A DNA stretch of 32,000 nt from Candidatus Electrothrix sp. GW3-4 (GTDB taxonomy: Bacteria > Desulfobacterota > Desulfobulbia > Desulfobulbales > Desulfobulbaceae), in contig NZ_CP147990.1 in the NCBI RefSeq assembly GCF_037902255.1, positions 240,001 through 272,000 on the forward strand. Direction: 5' to 3'. Each line of letters starts with the position of its first letter. The stretch's first letter is position 1. The translations under genes were made by a program, and so were the position numbers. The notes under the pieces were generated by a model, which ran no database searches, had not been told where the DNA came from, and saw only the letters and a program-made list of their open reading frames with translations. This document shows positions 6,156-31,094 of the stretch, piece after piece.

Positions 6156-9100
6156 GTGGTGGATCCTCTCTTTTTCCCCTGCCAACACCCTGTACAGCTT
6201 TATCCTCTGCTGGGTAACCTCCTCTCTTCCCGCAACAAAGATCTCCTTACTCCGTTCGATGAGAAAATAGAGCACCGGCACCACCACCAAGGTGAGGAAG
6301 GTGGCCACTAACAGACCAAAGATAACGACGATAGCCATGGACTGCCACCACTGGCTGGACTCGCTGACCCAGGAGATGTGCAGGTTACGGAAGTCGTAAG
6401 ACACCCCGGTAACCATGGGGATCAGGCCCAGAACCGTGGTGATGGCCGTGAGCAGGACCGGGCGCAGACGGGTGGCCCCGGCCGAGATCACGGCCTCCAA
6501 CAGGGCAAGGCCGCTTGCCCGCAGCTTATTGGTATAGTCGATGAGGACGATGGCGTTGTTCACCACCACCCCGGCCAGGGAGATGACCCCGATGCCGGTC
6601 ATGATGATGCCAAAGGGTTGGCGGTAGAGCATCAGGCCGAAAAAGGCCCCGCCCATGGACAGGATTACCGAGCTCATGATGATAAAGGGCTGGCTCACCG
6701 AGTTGAACTGGGTGACCAGGATCAGGAAGATGAAGAACAGGGCAATGACAAAGGCCCGGCTGAGGAAGGCCTGGGACTCCTGCTGTTCCTGGTTCTCGCC
6801 AGTAAAGCGGACCGTGTAGCCCGGCGGCAGGTGCATCTGGGCCAGCAGCTTCTCGGCCTGCTCACGGACCACAGGACCGGGGATCTTGGTCTCGTCCACA
6901 TTGGCCTTGACTGTGACGGTGCGCAGGTTGTTGATCCGATTAATGTTGCCCAGAGAACCGGTATAATCCACAGTGGCCAGGGTGGACAGGGGGACAATGA
7001 CCCCAGTTGGGGTCGGGATCATGAACTCGCGCAGCACATTATCGACCTGGCGGTCCTTCTCTGGCAACTGGACAGTGATGTCATAGTCCTCATTGCCCTC
7101 CCGGAAGGAGGAGATGGCCAGCCCATTATAGGAGGTCTTGATGGCCGAGCCGATGGCGCTGGTATTGAGCCCGAACAGGGCGGCCTTCTGGCGGTCGATC
7201 CTGATCCTGATCGACGGCATGCCCTCGACATAATTATCCTGGATATCTTCGACATGGGGGATCTTCTCCAGGGCGGCCCTGATCTCTTTGGCAAGTGAAC
7301 CAAGCACAGTAAAGTTATCACCGCTGAGCTCGATATTGATCGGTGCGCCTGTGGGCGGGCCTTCCGCCTCCATGGCCACCGTGATCTTGGCCCCGGCAAT
7401 GTCCTTGATCCGGGTGCGGATCTCCTCTACGGTCTCGTAGGAGGAGCGGGAGCGGTCTGTCAGGTCCAGGAAACGGACCCCCACATGGTTAGGGGTATTG
7501 GGTTCAAAGGCAGAGCCGCCGCCAGTGGAGGAGACGGCCCGGCTGTAGATGATCTTGACGTTGTTCAGATCGCTGGGGCTGGCAGACGATTCGCTGCTCC
7601 CTTTCCTGGTCCCGGTCACGGCCTCTTCAATCTGGCGGAGGATGCTGTCGATATAGTTCAGGTCGGCTCCTTCCGGCATGTCCGTATTAACATAGATCCC
7701 CTTGGGTTCAAGATCCGGGAAGAACTCCACCGGCTTTTCAATGCCCACCACCAGCAGCCAGCCCTGAAACATGAAGATCAGGAGAAAGACAGCAGCGGCA
7801 ATCAGGGCCAAGGGATGGTTGAGGCAGAACCTCAACAGGCCAGCATAGGGGCGCAGGAGCGGTCCCCGGATGACCACGGGTTGTTCGCCGCTGGCCTCCA
7901 CCTCGGCGGAGGAGACCGAGCCAACCTGTTTGGCGCTCTTCATAAACAGGGAGGCCAGGGCCGGATTAATCACCAGGGCCACAAAGAGGCTGGAGGAGAG
8001 GGTGATGATCAGGGTCAGGGGGAGATAGCCCATGAATTCGCCCATGATGCCGGGCCAGAAGAGCATGGGTGAAAACACGGCCAGGGTGGTCAGGGTGGAG
8101 CCGATCACCGGCATGGCCACCTCAGAGGTCGCCTTCATGGCCGCCTCTGTTCTGGGAACACCCTGCTCCATGAAGCGGTAGATGTTCTCGATGATGACGA
8201 TGGCATTATCCACCAGCATACCCAGGGCCAGGATCAGGCTGAACAGGACCACCATATTGAGGGTGATGCCCAGGGCCTGGAGGATCATGAAGGAGAGGAG
8301 CATGGAAAAGGGGATGGCCATGCTGACCAAGAGGGCATTGCGGATGCCCATGGCAAAGAAGATCACCACCACCACCAGGACCAGGCCAGAGAGGATATTA
8401 TTCTCCAGGTCGGCGACCAGGCTCTTGGTGTCTTTGGCCTTGTCCAGGACTTTGGTGATGGTGGTGCCGGTGGGCCAGCCCGGCTGCCTCTTGGCGAGGA
8501 TCTCCTCCACGGCATCGGCAATGGCGATAATATTCTCGCCGGAACGCTTCTTGACCACGATATTGACCGCAGGCAGGCCGTTGAGCCGGGAACGGCTGGT
8601 CTCCTCCTTAAAGCTGTCCAGGACCTGGGCGACATTGCGGGCATAGACCGGCTGACCGTCATGGGTCCCGATCACCAGGTCGTAGAGCTCTTCCGGGGTG
8701 GTGAACTCGCCAGGAATGCGGACCTGGAACTTGCCATCACCCATATGGAGGGCCCCGCCCGAGGTGTTGCTGTTCTCGCCCTGGACCGCAGCCTGAACCG
8801 CAGGGATACTCAGGCCGTAATAGGCCAGTTTTTCCGGATAGAATTCCACCCGGATCTCCCGCTCCCGGGCCCCGGTGATCTCCACGTCCAAGACGCCGGG
8901 CACGCCTTCGATCTCGTCTTCCAGGGTATCGGCAATCTCCTTGAGGCAGCGTTGGCCGCAGGTCCCGGCCAGGGAAAAGATCAGGATCGGCATCTCCGAG
9001 ATATTGACCTCAAAGACATAGGGGTCGTCTTCCAGATCCGTGGGCAGCTCACCCTTGGCCTCATCCACCTTGTCCTTGACCTTGCGCAGGGCGTCATCGA

Positions 9101-9912: not shown

Positions 9913-10263
9913 ATGCTGACAGGAAGTATCCCTAAATTACTCAAGGAAGCACGCCAGGTCAAAGAGGCCCTGGAAAAGATCGGACCGGGGCTGCCGGAAT
10001 CCATCACCGTGGCAGAGATAGAGAGACGGATTGCCGCGCTGGAGGCAAAGGTCAGTGCCATAGACGCCGTGAATGCCGACAAGACGCGCCTGGTCAATGA
10101 AAAGAACGCAGATGCCGGGTCGCTGAGCGATTTTATCGTCCGGGCACGATCCGGGGTCCTGAGCGTATTCGGAAAGGATTCCTCGGAATACGATATGGTC
10201 GGCTGTGTCCGGCTCAGTGAGCGGAAGAAGGGGAAGCGGCGTAATGGGGAAGGGAGTGAGTGA
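9913..10263 (+). CDS. hypothetical protein (116 aa, coiled-coil, basic C-terminus)
   Basis: ATG at 9913 preceded by a GAGGAGG RBS (9901-9907). The ORF track starts earlier at 9838, but that stretch has no RBS. Sequence MLTGSIPKLLKEARQVKEALEKIG... No recognisable domain. Confidence 0.55.
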   Translation: MLTGSIPKLLKEARQVKEALEKIGPGLPESITVAEIERRIAALEAKVSAIDAVNADKTRLVNEKNADAGSLSDFIVRARSGVLSVFGKDSSEYDMVGCVRLSERKKGKRRNGEGSE

Positions 10264-10511
10264 GCCTGCTCTGGGTGGAGTAGGTTTTGTTGTTTCGCCG
10301 GGTACGTGTAAAGTGCGTATCCGGTGGCTTAATGTTTTGCTATTGGGCCTCAAATCTCCAGAACCGACCTTGAAATCCATTTCACTGCATGGCCTGAAAA
10401 CGGCCTGTTATTGCTTGTGGTATTTTTCTCGTGGCATGTAACTAGATTTCTGTTTATTATTTATTTTTTCAGGTGATAATGCGATTTTTTTGAAACATAG
10501 GAGGTTATAGT

Positions 10512-11909
10512 ATGAGGGGGGTGGTTACTAGATTTAACGAATTTAGAGGGTATGGCTTTATAAAGTCAGACAGTGATGATGATAATGAATATTTTGTCCA
10601 CTGGTCCTTTATTGATAGTGCTGGATATAAAAATTTATGCAAAGGGGATCTCGTTGAGTTTACACCTGCGTATGAGCCTAAAGGGTTGCAGGCTCAACAT
10701 GTAAAGATTGTTGAGCAAAAGAACGATGAACCTTTAATGCTTAAACCAAACCCTTTTACTCCTCAGCAACCTATTACTAATCCTGATAGATTTGCAGGAA
10801 GAGAGGTTCCAATTATTAATGCTGTTGATTGTATATTTAATCATAAAAATATATTAATAACAGGTGAAAGGGGCATAGGGAAGAGTTCACTAGCTTTTCA
10901 GTTATCCTATTTGGCTGGAGGAGAAGACACTTTACTAAAAAGATTAAATATTAATACAGGTAATTATCAATTTCAATATCTGTGCCCGGATCATCGCTGT
11001 ATCCCAGGGCATAATTTATTCAATATAATTGAGTCATTAATCCTGTCGGCAGTTAGGGCATTAGGAATCGAACTTAGCTATGAAAAAATAACAACAGAAC
11101 TCGGGATTGATGTCAAGTTTGTAAAAGCAATCCAAAAAAGCGAGGTAGAAAATAGACCTTCAAACGAACTCATTACTTTTTTTGTTGATGCAATTGAAAG
11201 AATTTATTCCAGATCTGAAGGAAAATTTAATGGGATATTATTCTTAATAGATGAAATTGATTGCCTTGAGGATGGAGATAATTTAGCAGCTTTTTTAAAA
11301 GCATCAATTGAATCGTTAAATTTTAAGAATTATGGAAATATTTCTTTTATATTGGCTGGGGTAACAGGAACATTAACAGAACTTTTATTACAACACCAAT
11401 CATTTTCCAGACTGTTTGAGAATATTGAACTGAAGAGAATGACCGAGTCAGAACTTTCCGAAATAATAACAAAATCTCTAGCAGGAACTCAAGTTGTTAT
11501 GGATTCCGATGTGAAAACACAGGTTATCAATCTTTCGGATAGATTTCCAGAGCCAATACACCTCCTTGGATATCATTGTTTCAGATTCGATCAGGATATG
11601 AATATAGATCATATAGATTTTGAAAGAGCTCTAAATTTCATAATTAGAGAACTGAAAAAACAGGAGTTTGACAATCTATATGCAATTGCCAAAAATAGTT
11701 TTGGCTATCCCATCTTGAAAAAGATCGCATATATGAAAAAAAGTTATTTTACGGTGTCAGATTTGTCTAACGAACTTGATGTGAAAGAGAGTAAAGTCGC
11801 CGGATTTATTGGGGACATGGTTGGAAAATCAATAATCATAAAAGCAAAAGGAAGATTGTTCCGGCTTAAAGAGCCTCTTTTTCGAATATATTTAAAGTGG
11901 GTATTGTAG
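10512..11909 (+). CDS. cold-shock domain / AAA+ (Orc-Cdc6 or archaeal-ATPase-like) P-loop NTPase / C-terminal winged-helix fusion protein
   Basis: RBS AGGAGG at 10499-10504.
- aa 1-67: CSD with RNP1-like RGYGFI and RNP2-like YFVHWS.
- aa 93-97: FAGRE preface.
- Walker A: GERGIGKSS (10863-10889).
- Walker B: LFLIDEID (11238-11261).
- A FILAG strand follows.
- aa about 395-460: wHTH-like (FTVSDLSNELDVKESKVAGFIGDMVGKSIIIKAKGRLFRL).
The DNA is very AT-rich. Confidence 0.85.
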   Translation: MRGVVTRFNEFRGYGFIKSDSDDDNEYFVHWSFIDSAGYKNLCKGDLVEFTPAYEPKGLQAQHVKIVEQKNDEPLMLKPNPFTPQQPITNPDRFAGREVPIINAVDCIFNHKNILITGERGIGKSSLAFQLSYLAGGEDTLLKRLNINTGNYQFQYLCPDHRCIPGHNLFNIIESLILSAVRALGIELSYEKITTELGIDVKFVKAIQKSEVENRPSNELITFFVDAIERIYSRSEGKFNGILFLIDEIDCLEDGDNLAAFLKASIESLNFKNYGNISFILAGVTGTLTELLLQHQSFSRLFENIELKRMTESELSEIITKSLAGTQVVMDSDVKTQVINLSDRFPEPIHLLGYHCFRFDQDMNIDHIDFERALNFIIRELKKQEFDNLYAIAKNSFGYPILKKIAYMKKSYFTVSDLSNELDVKESKVAGFIGDMVGKSIIIKAKGRLFRLKEPLFRIYLKWVL

Positions 11910-11952
11910 AAATTGTCACTCTGGCAGCTACCGGCTTTCTGTGGGAGGTAAA

Positions 11953-12144
11953 ATGAAGTGCCAGCAAGTCATTACTCTTTTATCTTCCTGTAAAAAAGAA
12001 CTGAAGATTCGTTTCGGCGTGACCAAGCTGTTGCTGTTCGGCTCAACTGTACGCGATACAGCAAACGATGAGAGCGATGTAGACACCTTGGTCGCCTTTG
12101 ACGGCTCTGCAACCTCTAAGCGATATTTCGGACTCCTGTTTTGA
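11953..12144 (+). pseudogene. MNT-type nucleotidyltransferase (type VII TA antitoxin-like), 3'-truncated
   Basis: MKCQQVITLLSSCKKELKIRFGVTKLLLFGSTVRDTANDESDVDTLVAFDGSATSKRYFGLLF* carries the GS...D.D catalytic motif (LFGSTVRD..SDVDTLV). It stops where the conserved LEDLLG-KVDLV C-terminal part normally follows. No HepT partner is present. RBS GGGAGG at 11943-11948. Confidence 0.7.
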
Positions 12145-17133: not shown

Positions 17134-17205
17134 TAAATCCATAGGATTTTGCTTGATGCTGAATTTTTTCTTAAAGAACAGAAAGTACCTAACGGAGGCA
17201 ACCTG

Positions 17206-19170
17206 ATGGGAGAGCGGCAAGTGTATACGGTCACCTTTCTTCCGGCGGGGAGGACCTGTAGGGTTCAGGCAGGGACAGAGCTGCTCAAGGCGGCGAGAAA
17301 GGCTGGCTTGCATGTGAATGCCTCCTGCGGTGGCGCCGGGGTCTGCGGCAAATGCCAGGTCATTATTGAGAAGGGATCGGTTCGCGGCGGTAAAAGCGAA
17401 AAAATACCAGCCGCCTTCTCTGCCCAGGGATACCGGCAGGCCTGTCGTGCGCAGGTCTGTGAAGATGTCGTTGTCCGTATTCCAGAGGCAAGCGGTCAAC
17501 GCCAAGGAGGGCTGGGCACGGCCCTTCCGCAGCGGAATCATGCTCGTCAGCATGTCTTTGATATGGACGAACTCAAACAGGAAGGCGGTTGGTCGCCCTC
17601 TGTTGAGAAGGTCTGTATTGAATTGGCTCCTCCGGCTGGCCATGATAATCGGGCAGATGCCGGTCGCCTGTTGCAGGGTCTGGCTGCCCAGTATAACAGG
17701 AGATGTGAGCTCAAGAGTCTGGCCTTCCTCCAGAAGCTGGGTAAGGCCTTGCGACAGGAAGATTTTCAGGCCACGGCTACGCTGGAGGTCCCGGTGAATC
17801 TGGCCGCCCGCTATCGGCTGTTGGATATCCAGCCGGGCTATCAATGCCATCGGAATTTTGGGTTGGCCTTTGATATCGGGACGACAACCATCTACGGCGT
17901 GCTCATTGATCTTGAGACAGGGCGATTTCTTGCCGAGGCCTCCTGCTATAACCCGCAGATGAGTTATGGCGAGGATGTGATCTCCAGGATCATCTGTGCA
18001 GAAAAGCCGGACGGCCTGGATCTAATGCAGAGGCTGGTAAATGAGGCCATGAACCAACTTATCACCGAGATGCTGGACAAGGCCAGTCCCTCGGAGAGAA
18101 TTGGGCAGCAGCCTGTGACGCGGGATGAGATCAACTCTGTCTCCATTGCTGGCAATACCACCATGACCCACCTGCTCCTGCGTCTGGACCCGAGTAGTAT
18201 CCGCCGCTCCCCTTATGTGCCAACCACCACCTTTTTCCCCTCGTTTCGGGCCCGGGAGGTAGGGCTTAATCTCTCAGACACCTGTGCCTCCTTGGTCTAT
18301 CCAGCTATTTCCAGTTATGTGGGGGGAGATATCGTGGCCGGGGTCATGGCCTCAGGGATGTATAGCTCAGAACAACTGACCCTGTTCATTGATGTGGGGA
18401 CCAATGCGGAAATTGTTATCGGCAACCGGGATTGGTTAGCCTGTGCAGCCTGCTCTGCTGGCCCGGCCTTTGAGGGGGGCGGTATTACCCACGGAATTCG
18501 GGCCGTGGAAGGGGCGATCAGCGATTTCAGTCTGAATCCGGAAACCCTGGAGCCCATGAATGTCACTGAAGGGGACAAGGCCCCGATAGGTATATGCGGC
18601 TCTGGCCTGCTCATTATTGTGGCGACCCTGTTTGAACACGGCATCCTTAATCAGAGTGGCAAGTTCCATCCCCTGGGACATCCCCGTATCCGTGAGGGAA
18701 AAAGCGGGCATGAGTATGTTCTGGCCTGGAAAGACGAATGCGCCGCAGCCCATGACATCGTGATCAATGAAGTGGATATTGAGAATTTTATTCGGGCCAA
18801 GGGGGCAATTTTCGCCGGAATCACCACGGTGTTGCAGCAGGTTGGTTTGCAGGTGAGCGATCTGGAGCAGATCATTCTTGCTGGTGGGTTTGGCTCCTAT
18901 ATCGATCTGGACAGTGCAATGACTGTGGGCCTGCTGCCGGAAGTGGACCCGGAGATGATCCTGTACCTCGGGAATGGTTCCCTGACAGGAAGTTGGATGT
19001 GTGAACTCTCTAACCATATTCGTCGGGATGTGGTGGAGGTGGTTCGGAAGATGACCAGTTTTGAGCTCTCGGAAGTTCCGGGTTTCAAGGATCAGTATAT
19101 GGCCTCTATGTTTCTGCCCCATACGGACCTGAGCCTGTTTCCTGGCGCAGCCGTGCGTAACAACGTATAA
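17206..19170 (+). CDS. 2Fe-2S ferredoxin domain / ASKHA (DUF4445) protein, RACo-like (reductive activator of corrinoid proteins family)
   Basis: ATG at 17206 with a GGAGG RBS at 17194-17198. N-terminal plant-type ferredoxin (YTVTFLPAG...NASCGGAGVCGKCQV). ASKHA motifs FDIGTTTIYG, SIAGNTTMTHLLL, DVGTNAEIV, GICGSGL and LAGGFGSY. Confidence 0.85.
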   Translation: MGERQVYTVTFLPAGRTCRVQAGTELLKAARKAGLHVNASCGGAGVCGKCQVIIEKGSVRGGKSEKIPAAFSAQGYRQACRAQVCEDVVVRIPEASGQRQGGLGTALPQRNHARQHVFDMDELKQEGGWSPSVEKVCIELAPPAGHDNRADAGRLLQGLAAQYNRRCELKSLAFLQKLGKALRQEDFQATATLEVPVNLAARYRLLDIQPGYQCHRNFGLAFDIGTTTIYGVLIDLETGRFLAEASCYNPQMSYGEDVISRIICAEKPDGLDLMQRLVNEAMNQLITEMLDKASPSERIGQQPVTRDEINSVSIAGNTTMTHLLLRLDPSSIRRSPYVPTTTFFPSFRAREVGLNLSDTCASLVYPAISSYVGGDIVAGVMASGMYSSEQLTLFIDVGTNAEIVIGNRDWLACAACSAGPAFEGGGITHGIRAVEGAISDFSLNPETLEPMNVTEGDKAPIGICGSGLLIIVATLFEHGILNQSGKFHPLGHPRIREGKSGHEYVLAWKDECAAAHDIVINEVDIENFIRAKGAIFAGITTVLQQVGLQVSDLEQIILAGGFGSYIDLDSAMTVGLLPEVDPEMILYLGNGSLTGSWMCELSNHIRRDVVEVVRKMTSFELSEVPGFKDQYMASMFLPHTDLSLFPGAAVRNNV

Positions 19171-19242
19171 AGAGGGAGAAGACAATCTTATGATTTTGCC
19201 GTTGATATTTTTTGTCCTGCTCAATGCTGGAGGAAATGATTG

Positions 19243-20577
19243 ATGAAAACCTCTCGTTGTTCAGTCTGTGGTTATCTGCATTTCGGTGGTCTTGATTTCC
19301 ATTTTTGTCCGCTTTGTCATGCCACGGCTGATCTCTTTACGGACTGTACAGTAACTGACCGGGGTAAGCCGGGGACCGGGGATATCATGATGGTACGGAT
19401 GATTCAGGAAATGGCCGAGACAGGGGAACCGTTTCGCGAAGGCAAGGGGCCAACAAGGATGTTCCTGAATATGGATGACTTAATTTTTCGGCCTGCTGTG
19501 CTTGCTCGTTTACCGCTGGCAGAGACGGTTGAGGTCACGACCGAGGTTGTGCTCGGGAAAACAGCACAGCAGCCTATTGTCCTCAAGACGCCGATCCTTA
19601 ATGCCGCGATGTCATACGGTGCCTTAAGTAAGGAAGCCAAGATGGCCCTGGCCTTGGCCTCCTCCCGAGTTGGAACCATTGCCAATACCGGAGAAGGGGG
19701 CATGTTGGATGAAGAGCGGGAGCTTGCCGAATACCTTACCTTGCAGTATGCTCCTGGTCATTTTGGGGTGAAGCGGGAACGGTTGTTATTGGCTGATATG
19801 GTGGAGATAAAGCTTGCTCAGGGTGCTCATCCGGGAACAGGGGCGTGGTTGTCCGCTGCCAATGTTAGTGTTGATATTGCTGCTACCCGAAGAATACCTA
19901 TAGGAGAGGCGGCGAGTTCGCCCGTAGTCCACGCGGATATACAAGGTGGAGGTGAGCTGTCAGAAAAAATTTTAAAACTTCGTGAGCTCACCCTGGGAAA
20001 GCCCATTGCGGTAAAAATAGCTGGCGGACACCTGGAAGATGATCTGAAAGCGATTTTTCATCAGGAGTATATTCCCGATGTCTTGGTCATTGATGGTGGT
20101 GAAGGCGGAACCTGTGCCTCCTCTGTGATCATGAAGGATCATGTTGGGCTCCCCTTGGTCTATGCCTTGCCCAGGGTGGTTAGTTTTCTCCGAAAGGAGG
20201 AGTTGTTTCATCGCGTTACCCTGATTGCGGCAGGTGGTATCCGTCATGCCGGGGATGTTGCTAAGGCCCTTGCTCTTGGGGCAGAGGCTGTGTACATGGG
20301 CGGGGCACTTAAGATCGCCCTGGGCTGTACCTATCGCCGACAATGTCATCTCGGCAATTGTCCGCATGGCATTGCAACCCAGGATAAGAAACTGCGTAAG
20401 CGCCTTGATGTGGAACAGGGGGCAACCCGCATTGCCCGTTTTATCCAGGCTACGACTGAGGAGGTGAAATCCATTGCCCGCTGCTGTGGCAGGGGTTCCG
20501 TACATGACCTTGATCGAACGGATTTGGCGGCCCTGCAGCCTGAGTTGGCACGCATTACCGGGGTTGAACTGGCATAA
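19243..20577 (+). CDS. glutamate synthase-related FMN/Fe-S protein (GltB domain-2 like) with N-terminal rubredoxin-like zinc ribbon
   Basis: ATG at 19243, with a GGAGGA RBS 8 nt upstream. N-terminus CSVCGYLHFGGLDFHFCPLCH (CxxC-x13-CxxC). Core motifs PILNAAMSYGALS, NTGEGG, KLAQGAHPG, IDGGEGGT, IAAGGIR and CHLGNCPHGIATQD are typical of the Glu_synthase family. Confidence 0.85.
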   Translation: MKTSRCSVCGYLHFGGLDFHFCPLCHATADLFTDCTVTDRGKPGTGDIMMVRMIQEMAETGEPFREGKGPTRMFLNMDDLIFRPAVLARLPLAETVEVTTEVVLGKTAQQPIVLKTPILNAAMSYGALSKEAKMALALASSRVGTIANTGEGGMLDEERELAEYLTLQYAPGHFGVKRERLLLADMVEIKLAQGAHPGTGAWLSAANVSVDIAATRRIPIGEAASSPVVHADIQGGGELSEKILKLRELTLGKPIAVKIAGGHLEDDLKAIFHQEYIPDVLVIDGGEGGTCASSVIMKDHVGLPLVYALPRVVSFLRKEELFHRVTLIAAGGIRHAGDVAKALALGAEAVYMGGALKIALGCTYRRQCHLGNCPHGIATQDKKLRKRLDVEQGATRIARFIQATTEEVKSIARCCGRGSVHDLDRTDLAALQPELARITGVELA

Positions 20578-20652: not shown

Positions 20653-21144
20653 ATGCTTTCTCAATTTTCATCCATGCTCGTAGCGTTGCTCCTGGTTATT
20701 GCCGGTGCCACACTTCTTGTGATGATTGAAATGACGGGAAAAAATGGAAACTCTCAGCAGGAGAAGAAAAAAAAGATTCTTCGTGCCTTTGGCTATCTTC
20801 TTTTCTTTCTCTTTGCCTTGGTCGTGGCCCTTCTGCTGAACAATGCCGGGGGATTCAACTATCAGGGGATGATGTCTGTCTGGGAAGCAGTACATATTGT
20901 CCTGGCCTTACTCCTGCTGACGCTTATCCTTATTAAGCTCTTTCTCATCAAGCTGCACGTCCAAAGCAGTTTCCGATTGGTTTTCCTGGGAACGGGACTA
21001 TTTGGTTTTATTTTCGTCCTGATCGGCGTTACAATAGGATATTATATTTTTAATCCCTCAGGGCTTTACTCTGCGTCTGAGATGCCAATGGGTTGGGGCT
21101 CTCAGGGGGGGCTCAGCTCAGCGTCTTATGGGGGGAAAATGTAG
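20653..21144 (+). CDS. 4-TM membrane domain of TM/multi-CxxCH cytochrome paralog 1 (frame broken; N-terminal fragment)
   Basis: Collinear with aa 1-135 of the 22004 gene (FSSML..E-MTGK..HIVLALLL..GYY). It ends at TAG 21142, just after G-runs at 21105-21111 and 21130-21135. Confidence 0.7.
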   Translation: MLSQFSSMLVALLLVIAGATLLVMIEMTGKNGNSQQEKKKKILRAFGYLLFFLFALVVALLLNNAGGFNYQGMMSVWEAVHIVLALLLLTLILIKLFLIKLHVQSSFRLVFLGTGLFGFIFVLIGVTIGYYIFNPSGLYSASEMPMGWGSQGGLSSASYGGKM

Positions 21145-21895
21145 CAAATGCCACTCGCTTGAGCGGGTCTTTTTGGACTTTAAGGAGGCAAAGGATTGGC
21201 AGCAGACTGTGCAGAGGATGGCAGTGCTGGATTATCCCAACATCAGTCAGGCTGATGTCGAGCAGATTACGGCCTATTTGCTCGAACAGCAGCAGCGAAG
21301 AGAACAAAATACGGATCGTCAAAAAATCGGCAAAAATTTGGTGACCAGAAAATGTGGGATATGCCATGATCTGAGTAGGGTCTTCAGAGCGGATAAGACC
21401 GTCCTGGAGTGGGAAAAGACAGTCGATAACATGGTGGCATTTCTCGGCGTGTCAAATTTTCTTTCAACCCAGGAACGAAACGATATTATCACCTTTCTCA
21501 GTAGTCGGCAGAACAGAAAGAGGCAGGGTAAACCTCCCAGCGAGGAAAAAATGGCCGAAGCCCTTGTTGCCCGTAAGTGCAGTGCCGGATGTCATGCGTT
21601 GGATAGGGTGCTGCGCGTGGAGAAAAAACCGCAACAGTGGTTAGAAACTGTTGAAAGTATGGAGGCAATGACCGGTGATCCAACATTTCTTTCTGAGCAG
21701 GAAAAAGAGATTATAGTTGATTGGCTCCTGCATCGGAAGCGGCCTGTTACATCACAAGAAGAAGCAGTGCGTTCAGAGGGGACGGAAGATGTACATACGC
21801 TTATCTCCAGCAAATGCACAGCATGTCATGATTTGGAGAAGCTCTTTCAGGGCCGTATCAAGAAGGGAACTCCTTTCCCTGGAGAAACCCAGTAA
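21128..21895 (+). CDS. CxxCH-repeat (c-type cytochrome-like) domain of paralog 1 (C-terminal fragment; 4th repeat truncated)
   Basis: Carries KCSKCHSLERV, KCGICHDLSRV, KCSAGCHALDRV and KCTACHDLEKL, each followed by W..TV..M. The frame is open from 21038 and overlaps the TM fragment. Removing one G merges the two ORFs. The fourth module ends prematurely at TAA 21893. Confidence 0.75.
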   Translation: MGGKCSKCHSLERVFLDFKEAKDWQQTVQRMAVLDYPNISQADVEQITAYLLEQQQRREQNTDRQKIGKNLVTRKCGICHDLSRVFRADKTVLEWEKTVDNMVAFLGVSNFLSTQERNDIITFLSSRQNRKRQGKPPSEEKMAEALVARKCSAGCHALDRVLRVEKKPQQWLETVESMEAMTGDPTFLSEQEKEIIVDWLLHRKRPVTSQEEAVRSEGTEDVHTLISSKCTACHDLEKLFQGRIKKGTPFPGETQ

Positions 21896-22003: not shown

Positions 22004-23389
22004 ATGCATCCCCATTTTTCATCAATGTTAGCAACGTTGTTAGTTGTTATCGGCGGAGTAACCGTCCTTATCATGCTGGAGATGACCGGAAAGGTCCGGG
22101 ACAGCCCCAGAAGAAAAGGCTGGATACTTCTCCATCGCATCCTCGGCTACCTGTTTCTTGTTCTTTTTGCCGCAATGCTGGTCTTTATGGTGATCAAGGC
22201 GGGAGGCTTTCAGGAGGAACTCCCTGCCCGGGCAATGATCCATATTATCCTGGCCTTGCTCCTTGTTCCTCTGATCATGATCAAGGTGGTGATTGCTAGG
22301 CGACATGCCCAGCTCAGTACCAAACTGATTATGCTGGGACTGGCAATCTTTGGGCTCTCCTTTGGCCTGACCGGCATTACGGCAGGTTATTATGCCCTTC
22401 ATCGTTCTGATTATAAATATGCGGTCCTCTCTGATGTGGATGATGATATCCTGAATGTGGAAATAGGACAGAAAATCACCAATAGAAAATGCAGTAAATG
22501 CCATAGCCTTGAGCGGGTTTATCAGAGTTATAAATCTGATATAGCCTGGACACAGACCATTCATAAAATGGCAGAACTGGATTATCCGAATATCACCAAT
22601 TTTGACGTAAAGCAGATTGTTGGTTATTTGGTACAACAGCAGCAGAAAAGGCAGGGAGAAGAAAAGGATAAGCTCCGTATGGAGATTGGACGGAGTCTGG
22701 TGAGCCAGAAATGCAGTATTTGTCATAATCTGGACAGAATCTTTGGGGCGAAAAAAAGTCGACAGGAATGGACAGAGACCGTGAACAGGATGACCAAGAC
22801 CAATGGTGATGCTGATTATCTTTCTGATCAGGAAGCAGGCGATATTATTTATTTCTTAACGCGTATTCGGAAGGAAGAGTTGCAGGAAGAAACAACGGTT
22901 GTCCCTCCTCCTCAACCGAGCCCGTCAAAGGAGATTCAGAAACTTATTGCTCTCAAATGCAGTGCTGGTTGCCATGCCCTGGACAGGGTCCTGCGTGTCC
23001 ATAAGGACGAAAAGGCGTGGCTTGAAACGGTAAACAGTATGGTGGAGATAACAGGAGATCCGGATTTCCTCACTCCAGAACAGAAGAAGGATATTGTTCA
23101 ATTCCTCAGTACCCGCAAGCAGCCTAGCGGCAGCGAACTCGGAGGCCTTCATCCTGATCTGTCAGAGGGGGTTGATCCCTTGCTTGATAATAAGTGTAAT
23201 GTCTGTCATGATCTGGAGCGAATCCAGCGGGTAGAGAGGAATGAAAAGGAATGGACAGATATCGTCAATAGCATGGTGGAAAGTACCGGTGATCCAAATT
23301 ATCTCTCAACGCAAGAGAAAGAGAAGATCATTAATATCATCAGCGCCTGGGGCTCGAAAGAGCAAAAGGAAGAGGAAAAAGAAAAATGA
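22004..23389 (+). CDS. membrane-anchored (4 TM) protein with four tandem CxxCH haem-c-type modules (putative tetrahaem cytochrome c)
   Basis: 461 aa. TM helices at about aa 8-26, 41-64, 77-97 and 107-131. Motifs CSKCH (22490-22504), CSICH, CSAGCH and CNVCH occur at aa 163, 237, 319 and 398. Each sits in the pattern KCxxCHxL(D/E)R-x7-9-W-x2-(T/I)(V/I)-x2-M...(Y/F)L(S/T)xQE. Confidence 0.85.
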   Translation: MHPHFSSMLATLLVVIGGVTVLIMLEMTGKVRDSPRRKGWILLHRILGYLFLVLFAAMLVFMVIKAGGFQEELPARAMIHIILALLLVPLIMIKVVIARRHAQLSTKLIMLGLAIFGLSFGLTGITAGYYALHRSDYKYAVLSDVDDDILNVEIGQKITNRKCSKCHSLERVYQSYKSDIAWTQTIHKMAELDYPNITNFDVKQIVGYLVQQQQKRQGEEKDKLRMEIGRSLVSQKCSICHNLDRIFGAKKSRQEWTETVNRMTKTNGDADYLSDQEAGDIIYFLTRIRKEELQEETTVVPPPQPSPSKEIQKLIALKCSAGCHALDRVLRVHKDEKAWLETVNSMVEITGDPDFLTPEQKKDIVQFLSTRKQPSGSELGGLHPDLSEGVDPLLDNKCNVCHDLERIQRVERNEKEWTDIVNSMVESTGDPNYLSTQEKEKIINIISAWGSKEQKEEEKEK

Positions 23390-23406
23390 GCCGAGAAGCC
23401 CGGCTC
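23388..23406 (+). terminator. candidate terminator after the cytochrome cluster
   Basis: GAGCCG (23388-23393) / CGGCTC (23401-23406) with a 7-nt loop, followed by GTTTCG. It overlaps the stop codon and sits between convergent genes. Confidence 0.35.
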
Positions 23407-29293: not shown

Positions 29294-29394
29294 GTCGTCA
29301 GGAGCGTTATGCTCAGGGTGTGCCTCTGGGCTTGTCCATACAGATCTGCAAGAGACTGCATTGACCCGTTCACCTATTGGTCATTCTAAAGAAA

Positions 29395-30033
29395 ATGGAT
29401 ATGAAAATACCTTACGGAATCAGTAACTTTAAGTCGCTTCTCGAAGAGGGGTATCTCTATATTGACAAGACCGCCTTTATAGAAACGCTCGAAGAATACG
29501 GTAAATACAATATCCTGCTCCGTCCTCGCCGCTTCGGCAAGAGTCTCTTTATCTCCAGTCTGTGGTATTATTATGATATCAGCTTCAAAGAAGAATTTGA
29601 TGCGCTTTTCGGCCACCTTGCCGTAGGGGAAAATCCCACCCTGCTCCACAACAGCTATCAGATCCTCGCCTTTGATTTCAGCGGGATAGCCACCGGCGAC
29701 GTTGCAACCGTTCTCCGCAATTTTACCGGCAGGGTCGAATCCTGTCTGCTTGATTTTTTGGAGCGGTATGATTACGGCCCTGAGGCCGCCGCTGAGATCA
29801 GGGCCAAAGAAAGTCCGCAGGAAAAAGTGGACTGCCTGTTTCGCCTTTGCCGGGGAAAAAAGTTTATCTGCTCATTGACGAGTATGACCATTTCGCCAAT
29901 GCGGTTCTCGGTGAGAGCCTGGAAATGTTCACGGAAATTATCGGCAAGGGAGGCGTTGTCCGGGCCTTTTATGAAACGATCAAAATTGCGGCAGGCCGGG
30001 GAACAGTGGATCGCCTCTTTGTTACCGGTGTGA
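29395..30033 (+). CDS. AAA-ATPase_like domain protein, N-terminal fragment (frame broken near 29852-29861)
   Basis: MDMKIPYGISNFKSLLEEGYLYIDKTAFIETLEEYGKYNILLRPRRFGKSLFISSL is the signature N-terminus of the predicted AAA-ATPase (DUF1703-associated) family. After CRGKK the frame loses homology. Confidence 0.8.
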   Translation: MDMKIPYGISNFKSLLEEGYLYIDKTAFIETLEEYGKYNILLRPRRFGKSLFISSLWYYYDISFKEEFDALFGHLAVGENPTLLHNSYQILAFDFSGIATGDVATVLRNFTGRVESCLLDFLERYDYGPEAAAEIRAKESPQEKVDCLFRLCRGKKFICSLTSMTISPMRFSVRAWKCSRKLSAREALSGPFMKRSKLRQAGEQWIASLLPV

Positions 30034-31094
30034 CCTCCATTACCCTGGACAGCATGACCAGCGGCTTTAATATCGGCGACAACATCACCTATCATCGGGA
30101 TTTCAACCAGGCGATGGGCTTTACCGGCCATGAAGTGAAAGAGATGATTCGACCTTTTGTTGATGCCTGCGGGCTTGACAATCAGGAGATGATGGGCACA
30201 CTCGGCAGATGGTATAACGGCTACCGTTTCAGCAGTCGCGTCGATGAGAAGATTTTTAACCCGGACATGGTGCTGTATTTCCTCAGGCATTTTGACATGG
30301 GTGAGTGCTGTTTCCCGGAGCGAATGCTGGACGACAATATCGCCTCAGACTACGGAAAGATTATGCGGCTCTTCGGGATCGGCGACCGGGAGAGTAATTT
30401 TCAGACCCTTGAGGAGTTGATCGTCAACGGCGAAATCGTCGGACGGCATAAGGGGAAACTTGACCTGGACATGAACAAGCCCTTTGAGCGCAACGACTTT
30501 ATCAGTCTGCTCCTCTCTATGGGTTTTATTACCCTCAGCGGCACTGTGCTCAGTCAGTACCGTTATAAGGTGCCCAATTATGTTATTCAGAAGCTGTATT
30601 ATGATTATTTCAGAGCGGAGATTGAGCGGCGTAGCCGGATTACGGTTTCAAGCCGTGCTGTTGAAAACGCTGTCGCCGAACTGGCCCTGCATAATAATAT
30701 CAAGCCGCTGATTGAGGAAATCGGCAGGGTGCTGGCCTTATTTTCCAATCGTGATTTCATGCGCATGGATGAAAAACACATCAAGGCTGTGATCCTGACT
30801 CTGCTGTACCAGTCTGAGGTCTATTTTATTCAGAGCGAGGCTGAGGTAAATAACCGCTACCCAGATATTCTCCTGCTAGAGCGCAACCCCATTGAGGTGC
30901 GCTATCAGTTTCTCTTTGAGCTGAAATACAGTAAGAAAAAGGAGGGTCAGCGTGGCCTGGAGGAAAAACGAGCTGAAGGAATTACGCAGGTCAGGGCATA
31001 TCAGGAGCTTGCGGAGATCAGGAAGCTGCCTAAGCTGAAGTCCTACCTCCTGCTCACTGATGGCAGTGCGATTGAGGCGGTGGAGGTTGGGTGA
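29847..31094 (+). CDS. AAA-ATPase_like / PD-(D/E)XK (PDDEXK_9, DUF1703) protein, C-terminal part
   Basis: GKKVYLLIDEYDHFAN (Walker B-like), VTGVTSITLDSMTSGFN, then a C-terminal nuclease-like core (HIKAVILTLLYQ...YFIQSEAEVNNRYPDILLLE...FELKYSK). One extra base in GGGGAAAAAA (29852-29861) joins it to the 29395 ORF (..LFRLCRGKKVYLLIDEYD..). Confidence 0.85.
   Translation: MPGKKVYLLIDEYDHFANAVLGESLEMFTEIIGKGGVVRAFYETIKIAAGRGTVDRLFVTGVTSITLDSMTSGFNIGDNITYHRDFNQAMGFTGHEVKEMIRPFVDACGLDNQEMMGTLGRWYNGYRFSSRVDEKIFNPDMVLYFLRHFDMGECCFPERMLDDNIASDYGKIMRLFGIGDRESNFQTLEELIVNGEIVGRHKGKLDLDMNKPFERNDFISLLLSMGFITLSGTVLSQYRYKVPNYVIQKLYYDYFRAEIERRSRITVSSRAVENAVAELALHNNIKPLIEEIGRVLALFSNRDFMRMDEKHIKAVILTLLYQSEVYFIQSEAEVNNRYPDILLLERNPIEVRYQFLFELKYSKKKEGQRGLEEKRAEGITQVRAYQELAEIRKLPKLKSYLLLTDGSAIEAVEVG

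Follow-up and report, generated by a model that had tools for sequence, protein, structure and literature searches.

A cable-bacterium cytochrome with four predicted periplasmic haem c domains and a four-helix membrane module that may carry electrons

In cable bacteria it is still unclear by what route electrons travel between the conductive fibres in the periplasm and the cytoplasm or inner membrane. The cable bacterium Candidatus Electrothrix sp. GW3-4 has a gene, WGN25_01200, that occupies positions 22004–23389 on the forward strand of the 32,000-nucleotide stretch analysed here (contig NZ_CP147990.1, positions 240,001 to 272,000; hereafter the window) and is predicted to specify a cytochrome with four transmembrane (TM) helices and four haem modules. 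The open reading frame (ORF) has cytochrome c matches in both Pfam and NCBIfam. As judged from sequence, the product is almost certainly an inner-membrane protein in which four TM helices are followed by four periplasmic class-I c-type cytochrome domains of the type seen in SorB, cytochrome cz and quinohaemoprotein amine dehydrogenase (QH-AmDH). We propose, with a probability of roughly one half, that it is a transmembrane electron conduit, probably working via haem b, with a tethered four-haem periplasmic arm.

The 461-amino-acid product matches 'hypothetical protein WGN25_01200' in the database at 100% identity, and hydropathy together with a motif scan puts four hydrophobic helices ahead of four haem-attachment motifs. 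These are CSKCH at residue 163, CSICH at 237, CSAGCH at 319 and CNVCH at 398, with spacings of 74, 82 and 79 residues; the cysteine positions, first given in an initial annotation made from the sequence alone, were reproduced on the translated ORF. Each motif lies in a module encoded on the forward strand: module 1 (residues 151–222, positions 22454–22669, CSKCH at 22490–22504), module 2 (residues 225–296, positions 22676–22891, CSICH at 22712–22726), module 3 (residues 307–380, positions 22922–23143, CSAGCH at 22958–22975) and module 4 (residues 386–455, positions 23159–23368, CNVCH at 23195–23209), the last with a conserved C-terminal IISxW. The ~72-residue segments are true repeats, with pairwise local alignment scores of 75–149 against ~23 for shuffled sequences (standard deviation ~4; z = 12–28), confirming the fourfold tandem repeat of the initial annotation; hydropathy, AlphaFold modelling and repeat alignment likewise bear out its outline of four TM helices plus four homologous modules of ~75 residues. 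A methionine placed to be the distal ligand follows each motif by 26–27 residues (M189, M263, M346 and M424). In modules 1–3 both Cys residues, the His and the Met do not vary across 109 homologues, and 57 of the 59 main-copy sequences have the module 4 Met.

AlphaFold models the modules as all-helical (predicted local distance difference test score, pLDDT, 80–94), and their conservation is 0.65–0.73. The linkers ahead of modules 3 and 4 have the lowest conservation in the protein (0.16 and 0.30, respectively), vary in length and have pLDDT values below 50; the first of them, at residues 291–308, is proline-rich. Because these linkers are poorly conserved, variable in length and of such low pLDDT, the modelled architecture is that of a rigid dihaem base carrying two haem domains on flexible tethers. 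The full-length model has a predicted template modelling score (pTM) of 0.36, which makes its inter-domain geometry unreliable. PgcA of Geobacter (8QJG) resembles this arrangement in stringing small monohaem domains on flexible linkers (Pro/Thr-rich in PgcA), although the fold match is weak (rank 28, target TM-score 0.60). PgcA is not a sequence relative; it is a lipoprotein secreted outside the cell, carries three haems and lacks a TM domain.

What kind of haem domain are the modules? PF09098 (Dehyd-heme_bind) is the sole Pfam family above threshold for the cytochrome, at 61.6 bits against a cut-off of 25.2 (E = 9e-17, three matched stretches), and a tandem paralog described below scores 49.2 bits. 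PF10643 (PscC) reaches 25.2 bits against a cut-off of 27.1 over the haem part only (profile positions 153–191), NCBIfam SorB (NF052246) gives E = 8e-22 and 77.1 bits against an equivalog cut-off of 93, and TIGR03908 (QH_alpha) gives 69.3 bits against a cut-off of 274, with only profile positions 7–130 of 510 matched; a Pfam match to Cytochrome_CBB3 is sub-threshold. A profile of 109 family members finds the PDB entries 1jmx and 1jju (QH-AmDH), 2blf_B (SorB), 3a9f and 7uea_C (cytochrome cz/PscC). Foldseek ranks SorB (probability 0.98) and cytochrome cz (0.75) as the best matches for the modules, and with the whole protein returns single-module matches only. Modules 1, 2 and 4 carry the canonical CXXCH and module 3 the variant CX3CH, and the invariant Met aligns with a Met of SorB, as seen for M189 in module 1. 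From these profile, PDB and fold matches and the invariant Cys, Cys, His and Met, the soluble modules are assigned to the class-I c-type cytochrome domains, most likely with His/Met ligation. The likeness to the haem modules of QH-AmDH and PscC that the initial annotation had pointed out is thus borne out by PF09098, PF10643, SorB and the PDB chains.

The protein is nevertheless distinct from each of these known systems, and membership of the QH-AmDH, SorB and PscC families proper was rejected, because neither the family cut-offs nor the architectures are matched. SorB, of the SorAB sulfite dehydrogenase (2BLF chain B), is the best single-module match (PDB profile E = 6.5e-5), its CxxCH...W...M...YL pattern aligning with the Met included, but it is a soluble 81-residue monohaem subunit of a molybdoenzyme, whereas the Electrothrix protein is TM-anchored with four modules and the window holds no SorA or other molybdoenzyme gene. 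The dihaem N-terminal domain of QH-AmDH alpha (PF09098; 1JMX, 1JJU) aligns with two consecutive modules; the other domains of that ~490-residue enzyme subunit are absent from the cytochrome, and no genes for the beta or gamma subunits are present at the locus. PscC, or cytochrome cz (3A9F, 7UEA chain C), also begins with several membrane helices and continues into a class-I His/Met haem domain in the periplasm, which is homologous to the modules (profile E = 1e-4 to 2e-4). It differs in having three TM helices and one haem and in belonging to a photosynthetic reaction centre, whereas the Electrothrix protein combines four haem domains with histidines conserved in the TM part, and no reaction-centre genes occur at its locus. 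Assignment to the multihaem c3, c7, NapC-NirT or MtrC types was also rejected: all Pfam and NCBIfam matches fall below cut-off, and the c3, c7 and NapC-NirT types do not fit because the motifs are 74–82 residues apart, each inside its own class-I domain.

Module 3 is the least orthodox of the four. Its motif is C(S/N)AGCH in all 72 sequences that have three or more modules, paralogs included (69 CSAGCH, 3 CNAGCH), and K318, A321, G322, W339 and M346 are also invariant in those sequences; KCSAGCHALDRVLRV is common to both tandem copies. The initial annotation had taken the three-residue spacer, conserved between the two copies, to be something other than a random error, and the 72 sequences agree: on this alignment the CX3CH is a fixed feature of the family, not a lesion. 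The cytochrome c maturation (Ccm) system can mature CX3CH sites, and CX3CH and CX4CH sites alike are reportedly within its range. It is highly improbable that the repeats are something other than haem domains, such as Cys/His metal-binding units, or that the CX3CH site is free of haem, leaving a trihaem protein with one degenerate module. The non-canonical motif, a dip in pLDDT near it (73 for the block of residues 321–330) and the lack of cytochrome c maturation genes in the window, which holds no other respiratory genes either, would fit such a reading. Profile and PDB searches, however, put all of the modules in c-type cytochrome families and give no support to a non-haem (Zn) family, and the Cys, Cys, His, Met and Ala-Gly of module 3 are invariant in the 72 sequences, which argues for a constrained, functional haem site.

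The other half of the protein is a DUF6529-like four-helix domain (residues 1–135, positions 22004–22408, forward strand), delineated by hydropathy, AlphaFold, conservation and profile matches. Hydropathy places TM1 at 22025–22084, TM2 at 22124–22198, TM3 at 22235–22297 and TM4 at 22322–22396, and an AlphaFold model of this domain alone (pLDDT 92.7, pTM 0.84) has helices at residues 3–29, 36–67, 75–100 and 107–136. Loop 1 contains five Lys and Arg residues and loop 3 two (residues 99–106), or three counting K107, against none in the N-terminal tail and one in loop 2. Because this distribution fits the positive-inside rule, the topology is almost certainly N-out/C-out with the haem modules in the periplasm, in line with the orientation predicted in the initial annotation.

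Does this domain do more than hold the haems at the membrane? The initial annotation called it an anchor, a description that falls short: it is the best-conserved region of the protein (0.77). A TM-only profile finds 553 clusters at 50% identity, and among the best 144 of these 553 cluster representatives, on which residue conservation was scored, position 44 is His in 140 of 140 aligned, position 80 His in 141 of 142, position 94 Lys in 138 of 140 and position 48 Gly in 139 of 141. H44, H80, K94 and R99 are the only invariant columns in an alignment of 62 family sequences, in which M62 is nearly invariant. The codon for H44 (22133–22135, forward strand) lies at the cytoplasmic end of TM2 within an H(R/K)xxG(Y/W) motif, and that for H80 (22241–22243, forward strand) at the periplasmic end of TM3; conservation marks the first residue as a putative haem b ligand and the second as a putative cofactor ligand. 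From helix register, taken from the AlphaFold helix boundaries and not from coordinates, H44 is level with K94 and R99 and near M24 on the cytoplasmic side, and H80 is level with M62 and Y129/Y130 on the periplasmic side. Of the two TM histidines that the initial annotation had named as conserved, H80 is indeed invariant in the family and H101 is not. H44, which it had not picked out, is invariant throughout the wider family but absent from the paralog.

Among known families, DUF6529 (PF20139) matches the TM domain of 31 of the 62 family members (best E = 8.6e-15), with the window protein at 21.6 bits against a cut-off of 23.3, and Ni_hydr_CYTB, DUF4079 and DUF4405 recur as weak Pfam matches. 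For Ni_hydr_CYTB (PF01292), E is 0.22 for the window protein and 7e-4 for its best relative. The top natural Foldseek neighbours of the TM model are cytochrome b561 (TM-score 0.60), STEAP1/2, Hyd-1 cytochrome b, NOX5 and Dcytb. Membership of the dihaem cytochrome b561/Ni_hydr_CYTB group was rejected, the domain having two invariant histidines against the four required and no significant profile or fold match. TM homology to PscC was likewise set aside: TM-only sequences never match PF10643, and a search of the PDB with the TM profile, to E values of 10, retrieves no chain, 7uea_C included. One relative (P0170) gave a PF10643 envelope that extends into the TM region.

A second line of evidence comes from the gene upstream (19240–20577, forward strand), which the initial annotation did not mention and which is the functionally telling neighbour. 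It matches PF01645 (1e-102), PF21349 and the GltS alpha chains in the PDB, and its motifs comprise a rubredoxin-like CxxC..CxxC domain at residues 7–26 and a glutamate synthase flavin mononucleotide (FMN) domain with a Cx5Cx4CP [3Fe-4S] motif at residues 363–375. This gene, here termed GltB-Rub, is directly upstream of the cytochrome gene in all eight Electrothrix loci for which upstream sequence is included, and likewise in 10/10 loci of Desulfobulbales that have a two-module version of the cytochrome, where the pair is separated by 0–18 nucleotides or overlaps. When distant homologues of the flavoprotein (56–58% identity) were taken as the starting point, the next gene encoded a ~290-residue four-TM dihaem cytochrome in three of three contigs, one from an Aminicenantes genome, in which the genes overlap, and two others. 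The flanking genes of these contigs are unrelated, and the numbering of H44, C163 and C237 is identical in the three cytochromes. The sequences thus point to an uncharacterised two-gene redox module, GltB-Rub plus the 4TM cytochrome, in several phyla.

Directly upstream of GltB-Rub in the window is a RACo/AcsV-like gene (17149–19170; 2Fe-2S domain and ASKHA ATPase; AcsV 606 bits against a cut-off of 800). It was set aside as a system component, being adjacent in most Electrothrix loci and not in other Desulfobulbales. In Desulfotalea psychrophila (L001, 9408–12892) the pair is followed by a second gene of the GltB type, with an FMN domain and without the rubredoxin-like domain, and by a gene for a 716-residue fusion of a VTT domain to a pyridine-nucleotide-disulfide oxidoreductase.

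In other lineages the TM domain is also found in fusions. One type, of ~700–750 residues, has the order 4TM-[2 cyt c]-TM-FAD_binding_6-NAD_binding_1-Fer2, and a second, of ~520 residues, has the order 4TM-TM-FNR-Fer2. The first is a single chain with periplasmic haem c on one side of the TM domain and a cytoplasmic module for NAD(P)H (reduced nicotinamide adenine dinucleotide or its phosphate), flavin adenine dinucleotide (FAD) and 2Fe-2S on the other. Together with the two-gene module, these fusions suggest, at the level of sequence, a new type of transmembrane electron-transfer domain.

Electronema offers a natural comparison. There, GltB-Rub neighbours the cytochrome gene in none of six loci. 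H80 is kept in 0/29 Electronema-type sequences against 32/32 of the Electrothrix type, and H44, also kept in 32/32 of the Electrothrix type and His in 37/37 two-module forms, is lost in most of the Electronema type. Because the histidines decayed in the lineage that lacks this synteny, we link H44 and H80 to the partner; loss of the histidines together with the neighbour is what would be expected if they serve electron exchange with it. In five of the six Electronema loci (L002/L020, positions 6333–7937; also L014, L015 and L027, with a partial match in L017) the cytochrome gene is preceded instead by one for a conserved ~534-residue signal-peptide protein with four C-terminal CxxCH motifs (Pfam Cytochrome_C554).

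These observations bear on a simpler explanation, possible but clearly the less probable one, in which the protein is a passively anchored periplasmic tetrahaem cytochrome c, its TM part a tether as in cytochrome cy or PscC, and the flavoprotein is unrelated or only co-regulated. There is no doubt about the haem modules, precedents exist in PscC and further class-I cytochromes tethered to membranes, the cofactor site in the TM domain is a prediction and its fold matches are not significant. Electronema itself has orthologues that lack H80, mostly lack H44 and have no GltB-Rub neighbour. Yet one helix would suffice for anchoring, whereas here conservation peaks in a domain of four helices, with H44, H80 and K94 invariant or nearly so in ~140 clusters and R99 invariant in the alignment of 62. 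That domain is fused to cytoplasmic FNR-Fer2 elsewhere, the gene pair is kept across phyla despite changing flanks, and the histidines disappear in the same lineage as the synteny. From its top conservation, the invariant His and Lys residues, the FNR-Fer2 fusions, the synteny and the correlated loss, we infer that the four-helix domain is a redox-active transmembrane module, not a passive anchor.

In the conduit that we propose, the TM domain would bind one or two haems b through H44, at the cytoplasmic face beside R45, K94 and R99, and H80, at the periplasmic face, with the second axial ligand coming from a Met or a second protomer. The rubredoxin-like domain of GltB-Rub would dock on the basic cytoplasmic face and exchange electrons with the TM module. 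Electrons from a cytoplasmic substrate would then pass through FMN, [3Fe-4S] and Fe(Cys)4 centres to the membrane haem or haems, on to c1–c2 and the tethered c3–c4, and from there to acceptors in the periplasm; for Electrothrix, soluble cytochromes, reductases of oxygen or peroxide, and the conductive fibres are all conceivable. Typical potentials favour outward transfer, FMN and [3Fe-4S] centres being low and His/Met haem c higher. The proposed logic is that of MsrQ with Fre, NOX and ferric reductases, cytochrome b561 and STEAP, in which a cytoplasmic flavin reductase feeds one or more haems in a helical bundle and thence a periplasmic or external acceptor; the FNR-fused relatives resemble NOX in domain logic. 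Those haem-b conduits are built from six TM helices (bacterial b561 from four) and use four conserved histidines for two haems, whereas the Electrothrix protein has four helices, two invariant histidines and a built-in c-haem acceptor, and matches none of them significantly in sequence or profile.

Several points weigh against this proposal. Haem b in the TM domain is wholly our inference, and the Foldseek E-values behind the resemblance to b-type cytochromes are not significant (best 0.05), with designed four-helix bundles scoring equally well. Only two histidines are invariant, and helix register puts them on opposite faces of the membrane, so they cannot co-ligate one haem; it is for this reason that a Met ligand or a dimer is postulated. 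The cytoplasmic loops are short (8–13 residues) and offer little docking surface. The gap between GltB-Rub and the cytochrome gene is 75–135 nucleotides in Electrothrix, looser than in the ancestral pair, and the Electronema TM domain is well conserved without the histidines, which implies some histidine-independent role. Finally, His/Met c-haems are usually far more positive than FMN or [3Fe-4S] centres, which constrains the direction of transfer.

The same TM evidence could be read as that of a quinol:cytochrome c oxidoreductase, in which the four-helix domain, with or without haem b, oxidises menaquinol and passes electrons to the c-haem arm in the manner of NapC/CymA or a hydrogenase cytochrome b; such a protein could replace the missing cytochrome c1/complex III of cable bacteria. 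We consider this unlikely. Weak matches to Ni_hydr_CYTB (prokaryotic cytochrome b561, a quinone-reactive family) in 11 of 62 members, the presence of Hyd-1 cytochrome b among the fold neighbours and the literature finding that cable bacteria lack a canonical complex III lend it some weight, and the fusions might conceivably be read as NqrF-like, carrying electrons from NADH to quinone. Set against this, no quinone-site motif was identified, the cytoplasmic face has a conserved basic cluster, and the FNR-Fer2 fusions and the pairing with GltB-Rub suggest a cytoplasmic protein as donor, as in the flavoprotein-fed conduit.

How did the four-haem arm arise? A shorter form of ~290 residues, in which the four TM helices precede just two haem modules, is widespread: besides Desulfotalea, it occurs in other Desulfobulbaceae, Desulfocapsaceae, Scalindua and a further genome of the Planctomycetota, in Aminicenantes and in numerous metagenomic lineages. 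Proteins with four modules turned up solely in Electrothrix, Electronema and metagenome-assembled genomes (MAGs) close to them. Modules 1 and 2 have their orthologues in the module pair of the shorter proteins and make up the ancestral dihaem unit, whereas modules 3 and 4 are closest to each other and to module 2, and therefore appear to have arisen by duplication of a module of the module 2 type. The alignments make it near-certain that the four-module protein is a cable-bacteria-specific extension of the two-module form, in which two modules have been added on variable linkers. The initial annotation's view of the architecture as unusual accordingly needs qualifying: four TM helices with class-I modules are not rare, given the 553 clusters found by the TM profile, whereas only cable bacteria have the version with four modules and a CX3CH. 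A five-module variant (P0041, a metagenome protein of 513 residues) has an extra copy of the last module and shows that the array is still able to expand. In Scalindua the two-module homologue (L030, 5442–12478) lies among likely oxidative-stress genes, identified by eye from translations and not by profile search, that encode two peroxiredoxin-like proteins, two rubrerythrin/ferritin-like proteins and one catalase-peroxidase; this neighbourhood is a hint that the haems in the periplasm could, in some lineages, supply the detoxification of peroxide or oxygen.

Between GltB-Rub and the cytochrome gene lies a tandem paralog (20653–21895, forward strand). The initial annotation was right that a second copy exists, but in the window a +1 frameshift within seven consecutive Gs (G7, 21105–21111) breaks this copy into ORFs at 20653–21144 and 21128–21895. 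Deleting one G of the run restores a 413-residue ORF, the same length as in intact orthologues, and the window is 2 nucleotides shorter across the paralog stretch than three E. marina-like loci (L007, L011 and L025) in which the paralog is intact. An error of assembly, slippage and genuine decay of the gene are all possible causes of the frameshift. Besides lacking H44, the paralog has a natively truncated module 4 without a distal Met. Remnants of it are found in E. laxa and E. aarhusensis (L004, 8001–8580; L005, 8001–8389), it is absent from E. gigas, YB6 and one MAG (L008, L009 and L010), and only a 71-residue fragment corresponding to module 3, WLE95411.1, is annotated in E. communis RB; the paralog is thus evolutionarily labile.

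Elsewhere in the window a second split gene (29377–31094) shares an AAA-ATPase_like domain (PF09820) between two ORFs, with profile positions 1–120 in 29377–30033 and positions 139–201, followed by PDDEXK_9, in 29847–31094, which suggests another assembly frameshift or a pseudogene. GC content is ~50–60% in most of the window and falls to 37% at 1001–2000 and to 33–43% at 10001–12000, stretches that may be horizontally acquired; the latter includes a gene (10512–11909) for a cold-shock domain fused to an nSTAND1-like NTPase. A terminator-like GC-rich hairpin (23388–23406, no strand assigned) lies between the convergent cytochrome and TraB-family genes, on a consensus match only; promoter and terminator scans of the window were at background level, and no structured RNA with an Rfam match was found in it.

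The papers on cable bacteria that were consulted propose or discuss PetAB, CytB561, a homologue of CydA, soluble cytochromes, fusions of the pentahaem/truncated-haemoglobin kind and a DsrOP-like/tetrahaem ('pACIII') complex. We found no description of the four-module protein in those papers; Kjeldsen et al. 2019 lay outside the comparison, and an earlier mention is possible. A published supplementary dataset classes the paralog fragment WLE95411.1 as an 'OmcF-like' monohaem cytochrome. Identity with the 'CytB561' of the literature was considered and set aside, this being apparently a different gene: the YB6 copy of CytB561 clusters with Electronema, whereas the YB6 orthologue of the four-module protein is Electrothrix-like (71% identity, histidines kept). 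Literature searches returned nothing that joins cable bacteria with quinohaemoprotein amine dehydrogenase and nothing that mentions DUF6529, and the sole match for cable bacteria with CXXXCH concerns anaerobic methanotrophic (ANME) archaea.

What sets the cable-bacterium protein apart, as far as alignments can tell, is its two-module extension and its predicted CX3CH haem site. That the tethered modules deliver electrons to soluble cytochromes or conductive fibres in Electrothrix is speculation, consistent with models that invoke periplasmic cytochromes. A bolder version, which we regard as a long shot, is that the Electrothrix protein is a quinone-independent 'plug' from cytoplasmic metabolism into the conductive-fibre network, and that GltB-Rub with the 4TM-dihaem partner, together with the FNR-fused relatives, makes up a new, widespread family of NOX-like transmembrane electron exporters ending in c-type haems. 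Electrons from GltB-Rub would then run through the H44/H80 haem or haems of a previously undescribed four-helix module onto the flexible four-haem arm, where the two cable-bacteria-specific modules, with their CX3CH haem, would reach fibres or cytochrome shuttles. If the conduit that we favour is real, a membrane protein that couples a flavo-iron–sulfur enzyme to a four-haem arm would be a concrete candidate for the step by which electrons move between the cell interior and the conductive fibres of cable bacteria.

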